This document shows, in pieces, positions 3,522-61,740 of a stretch of DNA of 64,000 bases. Below the pieces are notes generated by a model. That model made no database searches, was not told the origin of the DNA, and worked only from the letters and a program-made list of their open reading frames with translations. Every line of letters starts with the position of its first letter. The first letter of the stretch is position 1. Made by a program: the position numbers and the translations under genes. This stretch comes from Carcharhinus longimanus (Eukaryota), in the NCBI GenBank assembly GCA_030264375.1, contig JASCQW010000043.1, positions 82,939,093-83,003,092 on the forward strand. Direction: 5' to 3'.

Positions 3522-3808
3522 AGGGGCGTTTGCATCTCCAGGATATCCCTTCTATAACCAGCAGAGGGCACCTGGAGGCTACCCCAGACCTGGTAGTGGA
3601 CTCTTCCTACTACAGCAACTTTTATCAGCCATCTCTCTATCCAGCTTACTACAACAATTTATACAACTATCCCCAGTACCAGGTGGCGGTGGCAGGAGAT
3701 TCACCTGCTTCTGACGTCAGCTCCACACTGGGAGGGACAACTGTGAAAAACAGCCTTCGAGGCCTGTCTGCATCACTAGTGTCTGGTCAGACAGGAAACC
3801 AGTGGCAG
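3522..3808 (+). CDS. DMRT1: DMRT1 coding exon (orthologous to human exon 3; P/Y-rich region)
   Basis: Acceptor ttcctttacag at 3521; phase-1 (G)AG start gives [54 protein letters not shown]...[22 protein letters not shown], matching human [39 protein letters not shown]...GQTGNQWQ; donor CAG|GTAGGC. Confidence 0.97.
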
Positions 3809-5811: not shown

Positions 5812-6513
5812 TGTTCTTGCAGTACAGCTTGTGGGCCAGGAAAAGTAAGAATGCTTCCTCCAGCCCATCAAGCTACCTTCATTTCAACCCTCTCCCCTCC
5901 CACCATCCAATCTGATCTCTGTGCCATCTGATCCTTGTTAGGAGATTTGAACCCCCTCCCCAATCCCCAATCCTGCCCTCTCACCAATGTGCCAGTTTCC
6001 TTTTCTGCACCCTCCTACTTCCTGCCTGACAGAGAACCCAGTCTGTTGATTGATTTACCTTTGGGTGGGAGCCTATTGGAAAATAAATAGGTGCACAATT
6101 AAAACTTCAGAGCATCCCAACCAGAACCCCATCCCATTTCCATATTACTTGAGTAACCTACTGCTTAGGGCTTTAGGGCTGTTGTTCACCAGCCAGCTGT
6201 GTGCTGCTTTCTTGTTTTATTAGTGAATGTTTGACTTCATATTTCTTTAATGCTCATCAGCAAATCTAATAAAACCTATGTAGCTATGTACCTGAGTACT
6301 GGTAACCTGTTAATCAGCATAATGATTGTGTGTTAAACCTGTACTTAGAAACACAAAACAGCTTGAAAATTTGACACCTTCTAATATTCCCATTACTTGC
6401 TTTGACTTGTGGACGCAGACATGTTTTGTTAAAAATAGGTTGCATTCGTCAGATCTAATATTGCATATCTGGGTGAAAGGATTTATTTACATTGCATATG
6501 TTTTCATTTTCAG

Positions 6514-6534
6514 AGAAATGAAAGTGATGAGAAG
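6514..6534 (+). CDS. DMRT1: Candidate 21-nt in-frame DMRT1 microexon (RNESDEK)
   Basis: ttttcattttcag|AGAAATGAAAGTGATGAGAAG|gtaagt; phase 0/0 fits between exons 3 and 4; TGCATG at 6560 and 6646. Confidence 0.55.
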
Positions 6535-9500
6535 GTAAGTACTCATGTTCATTAGTTTCTGCATGGCAATTTCTTCCCTCCTCATTTTTTCAAAATGCTT
6601 TCAGATCTAAGATCTTGGTTTCTCTGAGTACTTTTGTCCATGTACTGCATGCGCTAATTTTATGTTTTTTCTCATTTTGTGCTTTTTTAACCTTGCCTTT
6701 TACCAAGATTCGCGTGGAGTTCTTGTAGCTGAGACTGTACTATATATGACTTTCAACATCACGGTTTATCCTTGTATTAATACTGCAGGGACATGTCATG
6801 TGGATATTATAACAAACAGAAGGCCCTGCATACGTTACAGGTGAAATTTCTGGCTGGGCCTCACACACAGTCTTGTTGAAAAATCTCTGGCATTGCATCT
6901 GAAGTATGTTGCCTATATAACCAGTGCTGCTGGCCTTAAACTGAATTTTACTTTGAGTTTCAAGAAAGGTTATGAATTGGAATAGATGATTGTTGGAACT
7001 GGCTAGTAATCTGAATTCTGGGCTTTAAGACCGTTCAGAGATTGTCCTGCTGTTAATGCCTTTGTTAAAGTAGCAGCCAGAAAAGCTTCATATACACTCA
7101 CACTCATTAACACTGCACCCCCATTTAGTTTCCCAGAACAAGTTAGTTTGCTGTCACCCTCAAAAGAAAGAGCACACTCTGGAAAAACCGTAACAAAAAT
7201 AATCTAAGCAAAATGTTCAAGCTTAGTCAAATTGTCAAAGGAAAAGAATCAATGGGCTGAGGCAATACTGAAAAGTAAAATCCAGTGCAGTGCTCAAAGA
7301 AGAAAGACACGATCGTGCTAATAGGCCACTGAAGAACTCTAACCTGACCAGAGGAATGAGTGGGAAGCTCTTCAAAATTGTACCTGATGTCAAAACATCC
7401 ACCGTGGATTCACAGATGCTGAGTAAGTCCTAACTGTATTTACTTTAACTGTGATAACTCTCAGGCAGAAAAAGCAATGCACACAATTGTAAAGTAAATG
7501 CACTTAAATGTTAAAATCTCTCTAAATACCTGTCAATTGTTAGTATTTTTCAGGGTTATTTTGCTTCTCGGTGTATAAATCTAACAGTTCGTTTTTGTTT
7601 GCTACCCTTTTTTTGTGTTCACAGATAAATCTCAATCAACTAGTTCCAGTCATTTATCATAGAGGGCAAAATATTGTGGAGAGCACTGCGGACGTATCAG
7701 AACCAATTCACGCTGTTTCCACAGAGCTTCTGCTTGAATTACAATGAGAAATCAGGCCCATCCCACAGAAGTTGTCCTTTCCAGAGTCCGGTGATGAGAG
7801 GAAGATTTGTTGTCTGGAGGCGACAAAATGTTTCCATTCAGGGGAGGGTATTCTGGAATCAGCTGCTGAGTGGTTTAGAGAGCCAGTTGGTGCCAGATTC
7901 TCTAAATGGCTTATTGGAAGCTTTTCAAACTTCCAGATGATCCGTCATCCATTGAGGCAGATTCTTGTATCATTTCCAGAATCTCACATTGCAGAATTTG
8001 GGCCTTCTGCAGCATTTGTTGTACAGTGACCGCGCTAGCACTAGCTTGAACTGTGTGATGTTATGAAGTTGGGCTGGACATGATTGACTGAGCTCTGTAG
8101 CTCATTACAATGGCTGCACTCCCCTGGTGGTATCACAGTGCAGCTAGGTCATTAATTCAGGGCCCTCTTTAATTTTTTCATGTCTTTGGTAGCCTCTTTT
8201 TCTGTTTTGCTTTTTCCAAACCCAGATCCTGCGAGGGTTCAGACTTTTACCAGTGTGGGCCCTCCCTTTGTGCAGCAGAACTAAAACTGTCTCGGGAATG
8301 TCTGTCTATGGTTTTTTTTCTCGTGGGGGCACTGAAAACCATGTGTCATTAGGATGGAGACAACACTACCTTCACTATAAAGTCAACTTGTGACAGGTAG
8401 AGCTACTCTCCATATCAATGCCTCTAAGCTCCCAAAAACCAAAACAGTAGAGCTAATGGAGGGTAAGTTGAGCTCAGTAGCATCCATTCTTCAGGTGTTA
8501 CATGGGCTTCTAAGGAACCAAAATGTCAGGCATGAGGTTGATGTACAGCTCTGATGGTACAGGGCTGTTGCCTACCATATTGGGAAGGGACAAACAAGAC
8601 GTTGTTTATCAAAAACAAAATGCCTAAAGCAGGTGATACTACTTTTGTATATATAAATACAAGGCCTAACACCTGCTTTAGTTTACTGCTGCAGCTTTGG
8701 TTTACCTTGATGCAGCCAATGCCTGTCTCTAGGAGAACTAAATCAAAACATGACGCGAGTAAAATAAAAAAGCAAGCAGTCAGCACCAATCACTGCCATT
8801 CCTAGAGTCTCAACTCCTCACTCCCTCCAGCCTGACAATGTCCTCAAGCTGCCTGATGATCTTGTACCCCAAGGCACACAGGATTACCACTCACCTGTTA
8901 AAAAATTGAAGCACTTACACTTCCTGCTGCGTCACCTTTATGATGATGAGGTCAAAGACTCTGTACAGGCCTCTCAAACCTCAAGATCTGAAAAGTGGTA
9001 ACAGAAATTCTGTCCTGGTGAGTTTGCCAAATTATGATTTGGGGATCAGCAGAAATTTTGTGAGATGTGACAGGCTGTCTCACCTTGGGACTCCTGGTCA
9101 GGTTATTACATTTATTTCTGTGCTGTAGCCAGGTCTTGGTGTAAATGTTGCTTGGGTCCACATACTGTGCCACTTCTCAATATGTCCATCCACCAATTCA
9201 CTTCAAGAAAAAGGCACCTGCATTTTAAGCTGTGGCAAACAGTTAAAAAACTGCTGCACTATTAAATTTCTAGAACCTAGCTCCAGCCACGGTAGGTGTC
9301 CTTCACACTAGAATCTTGTCTACCATGTGCTGCTGTGGGAAAACTGAGACAGGTTGTCCACTGGTTACAGAGGCAGCCATTCCATTTTTTCCACTCTTCT
9401 GCCAGTTTTACATAGGGAGACTAAAATCAGCTGTACTTTATGGTTTTCTTTGAATCAGTGCAACCTTTTTGACACCGCTCCCCCCCCCCTTTAAGGTTTT

Positions 9501-21112: not shown

Positions 21113-21516
21113 TAATGTGTCTAAACTCCACAATCAAAAGTGGGGGGGGAGGTGGTGGTGGGTGTTCTGCTAACTTTTTACATACTGATCCACAGGGGGA
21201 GCTCCTCAGTCATTTACTAATTGTATATCTCAGTGTGTTGATATATATATCCAGTTTGAATTATATTTTTCTCCATTCACTAAATATACTATGAAAGTAG
21301 ATGCAAGTAAAAAGGCAACTTTTCCAACTTCATACCCTGAATTATTAATCAGCATAATATAGCTCCACTGTATATCTAATTATCATTTTGTCCCAATGGG
21401 TTGTCTCATACTTGGGTAAATTGCCATAAATAAACAAAATACTAAACACTGCAGACACCTTACTATTGTTCAGCATAAAGGATTTATAGGTGAATAACAT
21501 TGTTTTTTTATTGCAG

Positions 21517-21691
21517 CAAATGAAAACTCCAGAGAACCGGTTTTCGGGCCACAATGTGACACCACAATACAGGATGCATTCTTACTACTCTGCAGCCTCA
21601 TACCTGGGTCAAGGCCTAAGCACAGCTGCTTGTGTTCCTCAGCTGTTTACTCTGGAAGATGGTTCCTCTTTCTCAGATGTAAAATCCAATG
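21517..21691 (+). CDS. DMRT1: DMRT1 coding exon (orthologous to human exon 4)
   Basis: Acceptor ttttttattgcag; [58 protein letters not shown] matches human [38 protein letters not shown]; phase-1 donor G|GTAGGT. Confidence 0.96.
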
Positions 21692-25618: not shown

Positions 25619-27371
25619 TCTGCAGCGATTAGAACAGTTGTTGGCATCAATACACCAAGCTCAGAATCCTCTCTGATGACACTATTGACAACATCCAGAA
25701 GCCCTGACTACCCTTCAGGAATGCCACTCAATGCAAGCTGCTGAGTGTCTCTGGAGACAGGAACCTCTGAGTCCCTGAAGGTAAAGCTTCTTGATAATGA
25801 TCTTGTCACATTTTCTCTACTGAAAGTGCTCAGTTATCACTCTGAATAGCAATATAATGTTCCAGTAAAGGAATGGCAACATTATGTTGGCAGTACTATA
25901 TGAGCCGTACAAACACTGTTTAGTTTGCTTACCAGATTCGCCAAAGGAATACGAGTGTGAGGACTTCTCAGCCTGAAACTGTTCCATCACCAGAGGTAAT
26001 GTCAGGGAATACATTACAAATAAAAGATTCTTCTATCCGTTTTTTGTAGTCAAGCTTTTTGTTCATCATTTTATTTGTTACTGTTTTTTAATGGAGAAAA
26101 CCTATAGATTCTATCTAAAACATGTTCAAAATACTAGATTAATTTCTCAAGAAGGTAATTGTGCACAATTTCTGCATATGGTTTAAAATGGTGGAAAAAT
26201 CAGACTAATGAACACTGTTGCGTAGATTCATCTGGAACTTTCAACACCTTCCAGGTCTAGTGGAGGAGAGGTTTAGGTCACCTAGCTCCAAACTGAGACA
26301 GTAGCAACATACTTAGAAGAACTACAGTGAAAGCGCATGTCACTTGCAGCTCACCCTTTCCTTCTCATTCAGTCAAGCAGTGAGGTGAATACTAACCGGT
26401 AACTAATCTATAACATCTGGGCATCAGTCAAATTCTTAACTCTGTTTATTACAATGGAGCCTAGCTGTAAGAAAATGTGATAGAACTATAGTAGATGGAT
26501 TAGATCCAAATTGGTTGAATTAATTTACTCATCATTATAACATGATTAGCAATTATTTTTACAGTTCAGTTAAGTGTGTGTGAGAGAAACTGTTGCTTCA
26601 TATAGCAAAAATTTGAAGATTGAACAGCTGGAAGCTAAGACCTACTCCCTAATATAGTGGTTAATGTTACAGCTCAGTATCTTTATAACTGAGATTAAGA
26701 CCTCAGTTCTTTACTGAGATACAGTTTACTGACCTGCTGGATTCTGGCTTTGAGTTTGTTTACTAAGTACAGCTTTTCTGAATTCTGATATTTGTACAAT
26801 CAGCTAATACTAAGTGTTATAAGTGTAAATATGTGAATGAAGAGTTGAGTGCACGAATATCAGTGTACACTAGAGTGATACTGCAATGTATTCTGTCAAA
26901 TTACCAAAAATATAATTGGTACAATATCTGCAGAGTTTTTGCAGGTAAGTAGGACAATTGTTTTGGGTTGGTATTTCAGGAAATTATGTGCAGGAACTGC
27001 TTCTGCAGTTGTACTTACTTTGAAGCATAGCCATCGTGTTATTCATTTCAGTTGTCCTTTGTATCTGACCATAGTGAAGAAGGCACTGCCTGCAGATTTC
27101 CAGCTTCCCCTCTCTTTCAACCAGTGCAAGTAAATTTAAAGAAGGGCTAACAGATGCTAGAACCAAAGAATCTCTACAGTGCATAAAGAGGCCATTTGGC
27201 CCATCAAGTCTACACAAACTCACAGAAAGAGCATTCCACCCATTAAAAAAACTCCTAGGTTAAAATAAAACAACCTTTTAGTTTAGTTGCCGACTTAAAG
27301 ATCTTATCCTGTGAACTATATATTTTGGTTAGTAATAGTTAAGAATGTTGGACTGAGCATATACATAATCT

Positions 27372-48054: not shown

Positions 48055-49720
48055 GACCAGGATTGGGTGCTCAGCATTCCAGAGTCTGCAATGTTTCAAG
48101 AGAACAGGCCAAAGGGGAAAGGAGATGGGGGGGTGGTGGGGGGTGGAGGGTGGTAGCATTGTTTATCAAGGAATGTTTCAGAGCAGTGCTGTGTCATGAT
48201 ATAAAGGCAGTGGATAGTGATGTAGAGTCGTTTTGGGTTGAAATCATGAATAGCAGGGGAAGGAAGATGAGTAGGTGTAGTCTGTAGACACCTACAATGT
48301 GACTCAAGAAGTCAGTGCGTAAATGGGGAAATATCAAGGGTATGTTTAAAGGAAACTGCAATTATCATGGGAGATTATATTGATTGGATAAAACAAACCA
48401 GCAAGGGTAGCATAGAAGAAGAATTAGTGGAATGCATCAAGGAATGTTTTTTAGAGCAATGTGTTGCAGAACCTACCCAGGGATGGGCTATTTTAGATTT
48501 GGTTTTGTGTAACAAAGAAGTTAATAAGGGATCTTGTAGTTAAACATCCCTAGGGGGTAGTGACCACAATATGATAGAACTCCAGATACAGTTTGTGGGT
48601 GAACGCCATAGGTCCACAACCTGTGCCCTCAACTTAAATAAGGGCAATTATCATGGTATGAGGGAGGAGATGTCTAGGATGAACTGGGTAAACAAGCTTT
48701 TACTAGCTGAACCTGCAAGCTAACTTTCTGTATCCTTGTATCAGATCTGTCTGAATTCTGTCTGAATGTCAACATTTAAAAGTTTCATGCCTTTTAAAAA
48801 ATGTTCTGCTTTTAATTCTTACTTCCCATCTCGGACACCTTGTTTACTCATCTAACCAGTCTCTTTAAGTCCTCCTTTCACTTTCAATTTAAATAAGGCC
48901 AATTTTAGTGGTATGAAGGAGGAGTTGTTTAAGGTGAACTGGGTAAACAAGTTGAGCAGAAATTCAAACAGCTGATCTAAAACAGTCAGCAGGAGTTTAT
49001 CCCTATCAAAAAGAGGGATTCCACAAGAAAAGGGCACAATCCATGAAGGTTAAGAATAATGTTGCATTGAAAAACAGCATAAATAAAGTGACAAGGGATA
49101 GTGGAAGACCAAAGGACTGGGATTTTTTTGGATCCAGCAGCAAAAGACCATAAAGCTCATAAGGGTAAATATGAATTTTGAGAGAAAACTTGCATATAGC
49201 ATTTAAACAAACAGAGTTTATGTGGATATATAAAAAGGAAACGGGCAGCGAAGGTATATCTACTGAATGAGGTAGATGAATTGAAAATAGCAAACAAAGA
49301 AATGGCAGGTATGCTAAATTAACTTTTGCATCAGTTTTCACTGTGGAAGACATTGCAACTATCCCTAAGATATCAGACGGGCTGATTTCAAATAACATGG
49401 TAGAACTTACAAAAATCCCAATCACAAGCGACAGAGTATTAGAGAAACTCAAGGGGCTAAAAGTAGACAAGTCGCCAGGACCCAATGAACTGCATGCCAC
49501 GGTTTTGATGGATGTGGCTACAGGGATAGTGGATTCATTGGTTGCAATTTTTCATAACTCGTTAAACTCTGGGAGGGTACCAGAAGATTGGAAAACAGCC
49601 AATGTGACACACTTGTTTAAAAGGGGAGACAGGCAGAAGGTAGGGAGCTATAAGCCAGTTAATTTAACATCTATTATTGGCAAGATGCTGGAGTTAATTA
49701 TCAAATAGGAAAAAGCTAAT
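48055..49720 (+). mobile_element. CR1 LINE ORF2 remnant (endonuclease to start of RT)
   Basis: LDLVLCN and GSDHNMI endonuclease motifs; VLEKLKGLKVDKSPGP..PEDWKTANVTHLFKRG..YKPVNLTSIIGKMLE. Confidence 0.9.
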
Positions 49721-51629: not shown

Positions 51630-52447
51630 ATGAGGATATTGTGATTCTGCAACAGAATGTAGATAGATTGGATGATTAGGTGAAAACATGGCAAATGGAG
51701 TTTGTGGGGAAGTGTGAGGTCATGCACTTCAGTCAGTCGGAAGAATGAAAAGGCAGATTATTGTCTAAATGGGCAGAGACTGCAGGTGAGTGAAGTACAG
51801 AAGAAAATAGGCATTCTAGTGCGCGAATCACAAAAATCTGGCAGGCAGGTCCAACAAGTAGTTAAGAAGGCAAACAGCAATTTGGCCTTTATTGCAAAGG
51901 GGTTGGAGTTTAAACATAGGGCAGTTTTATTGCAGTTTTATCCTAGAAAGGATATAGTAACATTGGAGGCAGTCCACAGGAGATTCACCAGGCTAATTCC
52001 TGGGATATCCTATTAAGAGAGACAAAATAGTCTGGGTCTGTATTTCTTGGAGTTTATAGAAGTGAGGGATGACTTATTCAAACATGTAAGATTCTGAGAG
52101 TGATTGACAGGGTAGGTGGTGAGATGTTTTCACTAGGCGGAGAGCCTCAAACAAGGGGACATAGCCACAAGATAAAGGGCTGTTCATTTAAAACTGAGGT
52201 GCATAGAAGTTTCTTCTTGTAGAGGGTGGTGAATCTCTGGAATTCTCCACCCCAAAGGGTGGCAAAGGTTGGACCATTGGAGTGGAGGTGGATAAATACT
52301 TGATAGGTCGAGAAATAGAGGGCTATGGGGAAATGGCACAAAAAAGGAGTTGAGGCCAGCTGGCATAGATCAGCCATGATCATATTGAATGCCCGGATAG
52401 GCTTGAAGGGCCTGGTGGCCCCTCCTGTTTCTATTTCTTGTGTTCCT
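51630..52447 (+). mobile_element. CR1 LINE 3' portion
   Basis: QVQQVVKKANSNLAFIAKGLEFK..LEAVHRRFTRLIPG; RVVNLWNS; CR1 3' UTR. Confidence 0.88.
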
Positions 52448-53749: not shown

Positions 53750-53898
53750 TATTTTCACCTTCCAGTAGTCAGGACTCAGGTTTGATCTCTCTGTCCAGCA
53801 GTTCCCCTGTCAGCACCGGAAGCATTAAACAAGAGTGTGAATCTGTCACCGAGTCTGGCACCTTCTCTGTCGATTCCATTATTGAGAGTGCAGAGTGA
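53750..53898 (+). CDS. DMRT1: DMRT1 terminal coding exon (orthologous to human exon 5), including the TGA stop
   Basis: Acceptor tttgtttcattgcag; phase-1 join G|TA gives [49 protein letters not shown], matching human [51 protein letters not shown]; too short for the ORF track. Confidence 0.96.
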
Positions 53899-60796: not shown

Positions 60797-61102
60797 ACGG
60801 GCAGATGCCAGCATTGGATTGGGGTAAACACAGTAAGAAGTCTCACAACACCAGATTAAATTCCAACAGGTTTATTTGGTAGCAAACACCATTAGCTTTT
60901 GGAGCACTACTGCTTTGTCAGGTGAGTGGGAGATCTCATCCTCACTGCTTGACAACACCAATGTTGACAACGTGTTTTCAAGCGACGAGGATGGGATCTC
61001 CCGCTCACCTGACGAAGGAGTAGCGCTCCGAAAGCTAGTGGCATTTGCAGCCAAATAAATCTGTTGGACTTTAACCTGGTGTTGTAAGACTTCTTACTGT
61101 GT
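60797..61102 (-). mobile_element. Penelope-like palindromic insertion (two 131-bp arms plus tail)
   Basis: Arms 60828-60958 and 60972-61102 are inverted; tail 60797-60827 is homologous to the reverse complement of the tail at 5776-5811; flanking repeat TCTG(C/T)ACAAGAATG at 60783-60796 and 61102-61115. Confidence 0.8.
61006..61040 (+). ncRNA. Minimal hammerhead ribozyme motif (Penelope-associated type)
   Basis: CAC-CUGACGA-A-GGAG(uagcg)CUCC-GAAA-GC-UA-GUG: core boxes, stem II hairpin, CAC/GUG stem I, and a palindromic AGCU in place of stem III. Confidence 0.6.
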
Positions 61103-61179
61103 CTGTACAAGAATGTCAGAGGAGTACGTGAACAATTACACAAAGGCTACAACAGGTAATAGGGTTGGAGCTGCAGTGC

Positions 61180-61740
61180 CCCTGGCTGAGGCTTTAAATA
61201 AGTTTTTTGCCTCGGTCTTCACGGAGGAGGACACGAATAGTTTGCCGGATCTTAAAGATAGAAGGATGGTAGGAGTTGAGGGCCTGAATGCGATTACTGT
61301 CACTAGAGNNNNNNNNNNNNNNNNNNNNNNNNNNNNNNNNNNNNNNNNNNNNNNNNNNNNNNNNNNNNNNNNNNNNNNNNNNNNNNNNNNNNNNNNNNNN
61401 NNNNNNNNNNNNNNNNNNNNNNNNNNNNNNNNNNNNNNNNNNNNNNNNNNNNNNNNNNNNNNNNNNNNNNNNNNNNNNNNNNNNNNNNNNNNNNNNNNNN
61501 NNNNNNNNNNNNNNNNNNNNNNNNNNNNNNNNNNNNNNNNNNNNNNNTACACGTGATTAGGATTTGGAATGCACTGCCTGATACAGATTCAATAGCAGCT
61601 TTCAAAATGGGATTGGATAAAAACTGGAAGTGTGTAGGAAAGAATGGGAATGTGGGAGCATCTGAATTGCTCTTCAAAAGAGCCAGTGCAGACTCAATGA
61701 ACCCAAGGGTCTCCTGTGCTGTACTATTTTATGATTTCAT
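61180..61740 (+). mobile_element. CR1 fragments around a gap
   Basis: AEALNKFFASVFTEED before the gap; RVIRIWNALP..FKMGLD after it. Confidence 0.8.

Follow-up and report, generated by a model that had tools for sequence, protein, structure and literature searches.

A 21-nt in-frame microexon between exons 3 and 4 of DMRT1 in cartilaginous fishes

A stretch of 64,000 nucleotides (nt) from Carcharhinus longimanus (assembly GCA_030264375.1, contig JASCQW010000043.1, positions 82,939,093 to 83,003,092 of the forward strand), referred to below as the window, carries part of a gene identified from its exons as DMRT1 and, within an intron of that gene, a 21-nt microexon that is the subject of this work. 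The identification follows from the identity of the exons to a Scyliorhinus torazame DMRT1 model (PF12374 and PF00751), which amounts to 99-100% for exon 3 and to 98-99% in tblastn when exon 4 and the last exon are taken together with it. The exons for the DM domain are not part of the window, and membership in DMRT1 is based on the orthologous exons together with the Dmrt1 family region. Exon 3 (3522-3808, forward strand as for all features below; 99% in tblastn) encodes the Tyr-rich Dmrt1 region and ends in NQWQ with a phase-0 donor. Exon 4 (21517-21691, located by tblastn) starts in phase 0 and reads QMKTPENRF...DVKSN, while the canonical last coding exon (53750-53895, 98% in tblastn) ends in IIESAE. 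Exon 3 and the surroundings of the microexon have one match each in the genome.

The microexon occupies positions 6514-6534, with 2,705 nt of intron upstream and 14,982 nt downstream of it. Eighteen of its 21 letters are purines and its frame-0 translation is RNESDEK; the end of exon 3 (3808) and the start of exon 4 (21517) are both in phase 0, as had been claimed in the original prediction, so that the spliced product reads NQWQ-RNESDEK-QMK in frame. The acceptor AG (6512-6513) closes a T-rich pyrimidine tract that directly adjoins it (tract and CAG, 6498-6513), there is no further AG in the 33 nt upstream, and the same acceptor is used in contigs of relatives. The donor AAG|GTAAGT at 6532-6540 is the sole AAGGTAAGT in the window. 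When donors were scored against the U1-complementary consensus of 5' splice sites, that of the microexon matched at 9/11 positions, in one contiguous run from -2 to +7, compared with 7/11 for exon 3 and 6/11 for exon 4; it thus represents a strong 5' splice site (6535-6541). A branch-point-like TTTAC at 6486-6490, conforming to the branch-point consensus yUnAy, would place a putative branch A at 6489, i.e., at -25 from the exon, and a TGC lies between it and the AG (6493-6495, -21 to -19). Downstream, a motif scan returned two TGCATG elements of the RBFOX type, putative binding sites at 6560-6565 (+26) and 6646-6651 (+112). The in-frame segment, its coordinates and splice sites, the upstream TGC and the downstream TGCATG pair are therefore all present in the window as originally described.

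Splicing of the microexon was assessed in assembled contigs of four sequencing runs from related organisms, which were selected from eight likely-RNA runs among 14 listed and compared with exon 3. In three of these runs (X1, X5 and X8, representing three organisms and three studies) a single contig leads from position 3808 into the 21-mer and on into exon 4: the match to exon 3 ends exactly at 3808, and the loose end then consists of the 21-mer and, directly after it, the nine letters that open exon 4. In the other direction the same contigs continue into sequence reading as exon 2 of database models, so that they are spliced molecules. All 21 letters of the microexon are identical in X1 and X5, and 20/21 are identical in X8, where the one difference is synonymous; X8 is the most divergent of the set, differing in 33/290 letters of exon 3 and carrying chimaera-type exon-2 residues as in database proteins P0005 and P0006. 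The contig of the remaining run (X3) stops at 3753, before the junction, and is hence uninformative on the microexon. The intron flanks were without coverage in these runs, which carries no weight on its own. A skipping join from 3808 to exon 4 was not found among the joints and loose ends of the four runs, and 0/3 junction-spanning contigs skip. Both of the junctions that had been put forward as a check, 3808^6514 and 6534^21517, are thus present in contigs of relatives (3/3 spanning). Because the contigs hold both joins and the peptide is present in 25 database proteins, the microexon goes beyond a chance match: it is a real exon, which related species splice in after exon 3 and before exon 4 with the frame kept. 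The contigs further suggest that inclusion is the main form in the sampled runs.

The distribution of the peptide was determined over 269 proteins, comprising 36 named chondrichthyan records, 232 other proteins (a few unrelated matches among them) and one unnamed fragment, which ends at the exon-3 donor and was excluded from the counts as uninformative. The pattern RNE[S/N]D[E/D]K was present in 25/36 named chondrichthyan records and in 11/20 species sets, chimaera included, and in 0/232 other proteins; solely positions 4 (S/N) and 6 (E/D) vary. The carriers are Scyliorhinus torazame, S. canicula, Pristiophorus, Rhincodon, two Chiloscyllium sets, Leucoraja, Rhinoraja, Narcine, Hemitrygon and Callorhinchus. 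Among the records compared the peptide is therefore limited to cartilaginous fishes, which bears out the claim that the exon is lineage-specific. Six species sets have more than one isoform, and the microexon occurs in 17/17 of these isoforms, despite free variation of the last exon. The microexon is already contained in the automatic RefSeq models of 11 species sets, and RefSeq/UniRef entries such as XP_072372978.1 (Scyliorhinus torazame), XP_055488793.1 (Leucoraja erinacea) and XP_042201382.1 (Callorhinchus milii) show the same insert at the same junction; being automatic models, they are silent on regulation. The absence of the peptide from 11/36 named chondrichthyan records could be taken to indicate that the exon is an intronic match due to chance, or an artefact of annotation passed from model to model. 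We give this explanation next to no credence, as it is contradicted by the contigs of three studies, which hold both joins independently of annotation, and by the purely synonymous change in the most distant of them.

The chondrichthyan models lacking the peptide are of several kinds. Nine species are represented only by a model without the microexon, with one model each. The models of Carcharodon and Amblyraja have unrelated C-termini, and those of Heptranchias, Cetorhinus, Pristis, Heterodontus and Hypanus pass from YNYPQYQ straight to exon 4, which is the junction of ray-finned fishes. This junction, together with a stretch resembling sturgeon where exons 2 and 3 meet in the Heterodontus model, leads us to infer that fish proteins, and no gonad reads, guided these five models. 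For Callorhinchus there are two short UniRef models without the microexon and three other records with it.

Outside the cartilaginous fishes, exon 3 is joined directly to exon 4 in lungfish (three records), coelacanth, amphibians and amniotes, apart from models of sheep and echidna, in which there are five long inserts of unrelated sequence; in sturgeon, paddlefish, reedfish and teleosts exon 3 is shorter at its end and the peptide is missing too. No jawless-fish sequence was recognised among 63 representatives or in three protein searches, and the sequences compared therefore make a gain on the chondrichthyan stem as parsimonious as a loss on that of the bony fishes. Metagenome scans for shark DNA with the exact pattern gave 0 matches, and two weak loci (L002 and L003), found by a scan with the exon-3 peptide at 63% over 24 residues, were taken as unrelated.

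We favour, with moderate confidence, a default inclusion of the microexon, for which a strong donor, a tight acceptor and the purine-rich body would be responsible and in which RBFOX proteins bound downstream would help. At 21 nt the exon would be too short for easy definition and would therefore depend on a near-perfect U1 donor, the acceptor, the purine body and the UGCAUG sites. The donor would carry recognition, the T-rich tract right at the AG and the branch point at -25 would serve the acceptor side, the purine-rich body may work as an enhancer, and RBFOX proteins bound at the two downstream UGCAUG sites would top up inclusion. The exon would thus be part of the main, likely gonadal, DMRT1 transcript, and skipping, if any, would give a minor product with its frame preserved. 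This proposal is based first on the 3/3 junction-spanning contigs and the 17/17 multi-isoform models which include the microexon, and second on the fit of donor strength, T-rich acceptor and purine content to the constitutive profile of human micro-exons. According to the accessible part of the survey concerned (PMC4317164), constitutive splicing applies to about 81% of human micro-exons of 51 nt or less, a share that is lower among the shortest, and the constitutive ones are characterized by strong splice sites, dense exonic enhancers, T-rich sequence just upstream, short flanking introns and a median inclusion across tissues of 90% or more. What the DMRT1 microexon shares with them is a very strong donor, a tract by the AG, a purine-rich body and the observed inclusion. 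The same evidence bears on the regulation that had been proposed for this exon: a tissue- or sex-regulated isoform is not supported so far, since every spanning contig and every one of the 17 isoforms includes it.

Several points weigh against default inclusion. The runs are assembled contigs whose RNA nature was guessed, and none of them comes from the species of the window; contigs lose rare variants and have no inclusion level, tissue or sex attached, so that minor skipping would still be compatible with them. The T content at -20 to -5 is 9/16 for the microexon and 11/16 for each of exons 3 and 4. The two downstream TGCATG and the long introns differ from the constitutive class, and TGCATG is over-represented downstream of alternative and not of constitutive micro-exons in the part of the human survey available, where intron length and TGCATG are class tendencies in human rather than strict criteria (PMC4317164). 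The microexon thus combines constitutive and alternative micro-exon features. To this are added the 11 chondrichthyan records lacking the peptide, among which the Mobula models (P0003 and P0128) look otherwise complete; because both do, a real lineage-specific loss is possible in Mobula, an annotation miss being the other possibility. The end of exon 3 is itself altered in Mobula (SQWP), and the related Hemitrygon has the microexon. A further adverse point concerns the protein: the AlphaFold model has a mean predicted local distance difference test (pLDDT) score of 44 and one helix only, and being poor overall it supports disorder around the insert weakly.

The downstream motifs raise the alternative of an RBFOX-controlled cassette, in which the microexon would be included where RBFOX is abundant, likely in the adult testis, and skipped in other cells or stages to give two proteins; we regard this as possible on a tentative footing. 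The pair of TGCATG is rare in the window, being found in 12/6174 intervals of 120 nt and 38/6044 intervals of 250 nt (0.2-0.6%; the intervals overlap and the pair itself is counted), and no TGCATG was found within 250 nt of the four other exons. The microexon is symmetric, so that skipping keeps the frame, and Fox-1_C matches were found on four contigs of the genome. The genome also has two SRRM_C matches over the cut-off; the presence of both the RBFOX and SRRM families in the genome is expected and little informative. In the accessible text of the human survey TGCATG downstream marks alternative micro-exons, and the RBFOX-enhanced examples share with the present case a short symmetric exon with TGCATG in the downstream intron, whereas the examples themselves are defined by skipping that was measured, mostly in brain, heart and muscle, and by flanks that are conserved (PMC4317164). 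The available part of a bamboo-shark study describes dmrt1 as male-biased in juvenile gonads and undetected in gonadal primordia (10.1101/2025.03.13.642935); this bias makes the available evidence, which for the annotations would come mainly from one tissue, probably testis-heavy, and an RBFOX cassette accordingly plausible. Against it stand the contigs, which hold no skipping join, and the RefSeq species sets, none of which has both forms. The RBFOX argument of the original prediction keeps some weight through the rarity of the TGCATG pair, and its counterpart, a skipped product, was not seen in the contigs. An extended version, i.e., an ancient RBFOX switch with inclusion in the testis, skipping in the ovary or in one gonadal cell type, an exon either lost by bony vertebrates or gained by chondrichthyans, and perhaps a second loss in Mobula, appears improbable. 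A Nova-type cluster of YCAY, with five copies in 150 nt downstream, was set aside as chance, being reached by 858/6144 intervals (14%).

Microexons of the SRRM3/4 class are shorter than 27 nt, and the upstream TGC had been read as a sign that this exon depends on those factors. It would then belong to a neural or endocrine programme and be included only where the factors are expressed, which the 21-nt length, the TGC flanked by the putative branch point and the AG, and the two genome SRRM_C matches would fit. A TGC at -25 to -6 is common, being present at 86/231 acceptor-like sites of the window (37%), and was rejected as SRRM3/4 evidence. In the accessible part of the work on these neural and endocrine microexons (10.1101/2024.09.17.613571), which resemble the DMRT1 microexon in short length and in a TGC that follows the branch point and precedes the AG, targets of SRRM3/4 are described as having both their tract of pyrimidines and their branch point set back from the AG. 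Here, in contrast, the tract adjoins the AG and the putative branch A is at -25; the displacement that marks the class is thus lacking in the sequence, the branch point being in this case a motif guess. Inclusion is moreover the assembled form in every junction-spanning contig. The SRRM3/4 argument is consequently weak, and we hold such a dependence to be unlikely.

A sex-specific switch echoing insect doublesex, with inclusion in the testis and skipping in the ovary, was also considered. It would suit a frame-preserving, purine-rich exon in a vertebrate doublesex relative, and sex-specific splicing of dmrt1 is reported in barramundi, where, in the part of that report available, the DM-domain exon is involved (PMC6143260). 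The skipped form was not seen in contigs or models, and the sex bias of shark dmrt1 described in the accessible bamboo-shark text is one of expression level, with gonadal primordia devoid of detectable dmrt1 (10.1101/2025.03.13.642935). We consider a switch of this type very unlikely.

If default inclusion is assumed, the consequence for the protein would be a seven-residue spacer. In an alignment the insert corresponds to residues 260-266 of P0138, far from the DM domain, and in the AlphaFold model pLDDT is below 50 for residues 157-373. RNESDEK is most likely a charged spacer in the C-terminal half predicted to be disordered, which would leave the DM DNA-binding domain untouched and may at most tune cofactor contacts. 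The changes in RNESDEK are conservative and confined to 2/7 positions, and this suggests selection on the protein or on the enhancer sequence, which are not separable here. The insert was also compared with phosphorylation and small ubiquitin-like modifier (SUMO) consensus motifs; such a role was dropped, as no consensus fits and Narcine and Hemitrygon have Asn in place of the Ser.

Neither microexons nor splice variants of Dmrt1 are new as such. The Dmrt1 isoform table of PMC7085901, in its accessible part, covers nine bony vertebrates, with non-canonical forms being minor, and contains no cartilaginous fish and no microexon; here, by contrast, the inserted form is the one seen. In the European sea bass pair of that table one isoform has 78 bp more than the other, inserted in frame between the Tyr-rich and the Ser-rich domain; like the DMRT1 microexon, this alters the C-terminal half in frame and spares the DM domain. 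No published description of a chondrichthyan DMRT1 microexon was found in a literature search whose scope excluded subscription papers and supplements.

The exon sits in a gene central to testis regulation and in a lineage, the cartilaginous fishes, that serves as outgroup to the bony vertebrates as a whole. Sharks and chimaeras have been separate for over 400 million years, and a microexon near-unchanged between them marks a site under constraint in the C-terminal half, a poorly understood part of the protein. The gene models of nine chondrichthyan species probably need checking. The importance of the exon would be much greater if its inclusion proved to be sex- or cell-type-specific, and an RBFOX switch, if true, would mean that DMRT1 activity is tuned by splicing in a vertebrate relative of doublesex.

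The exon 3-4 junction appears to have been remodelled separately in each gnathostome lineage, by a microexon in chondrichthyans, a shortened exon 3 in ray-finned fishes and a tandem acceptor (with or without Q) in mammals. Within exon 3 of the window an internal CAG|GTGGCG at 3682-3688 marks the point where the ray-finned fish Dmrt1 exon 3 stops (YQ|), with a loss of about 42 residues. The white sturgeon sequence 'form ST2' (P0232) goes on past that point with the lost half of exon 3 in degenerate form, which suggests that ray-fins moved to this internal donor; use of the internal donor was not seen in the contigs of relatives matched to exon 3. Exon 4 begins CAG|CAA (21514-21519), so that the extra Gln is fixed, and in the contig of X8, the most divergent one, this codon reads CAG. 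Mammalian DMRT1 records show both QWQ-MK and QWQ-QMK, and these two forms together with the contig CAG are consistent with an old tandem acceptor at exon 4. The direct join of GNQWQ to MKN that had been ascribed to human DMRT1 does exist among mammalian records; it is not the sole form, as a human record (isoform X3) reads QWQ-QMKN.

An alternative last exon at 25924-25976, recognised by tblastn and peptide match (13/13), has two acceptors 12 nt apart, giving VCLPDSPKEYECEDFSA* from 25924 and DSPKEYECEDFSA* from 25936. It substitutes for the Ser-rich terminal exon and is found in models of Scyliorhinus, Pristiophorus, Chiloscyllium, Leucoraja and Narcine. As judged from the annotations, it is this last exon and not the microexon that is the demonstrably alternative part of DMRT1, and it may be the better regulatory lead. 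In Scyliorhinus canicula isoform X2 (P0197) the Tyr-rich stretch of exon 3 is missing and ATPDL is joined to YQVAV, as if internally spliced. Counted over the whole window, TGCATG has 29 copies on the sense strand and 15 on the opposite one. Finally, open frames within introns at 49280-49705, 51684-52013 and 61059-61300 are presumably reverse-transcriptase remnants of long interspersed nuclear elements (LINE) of the CR1/L2 type.

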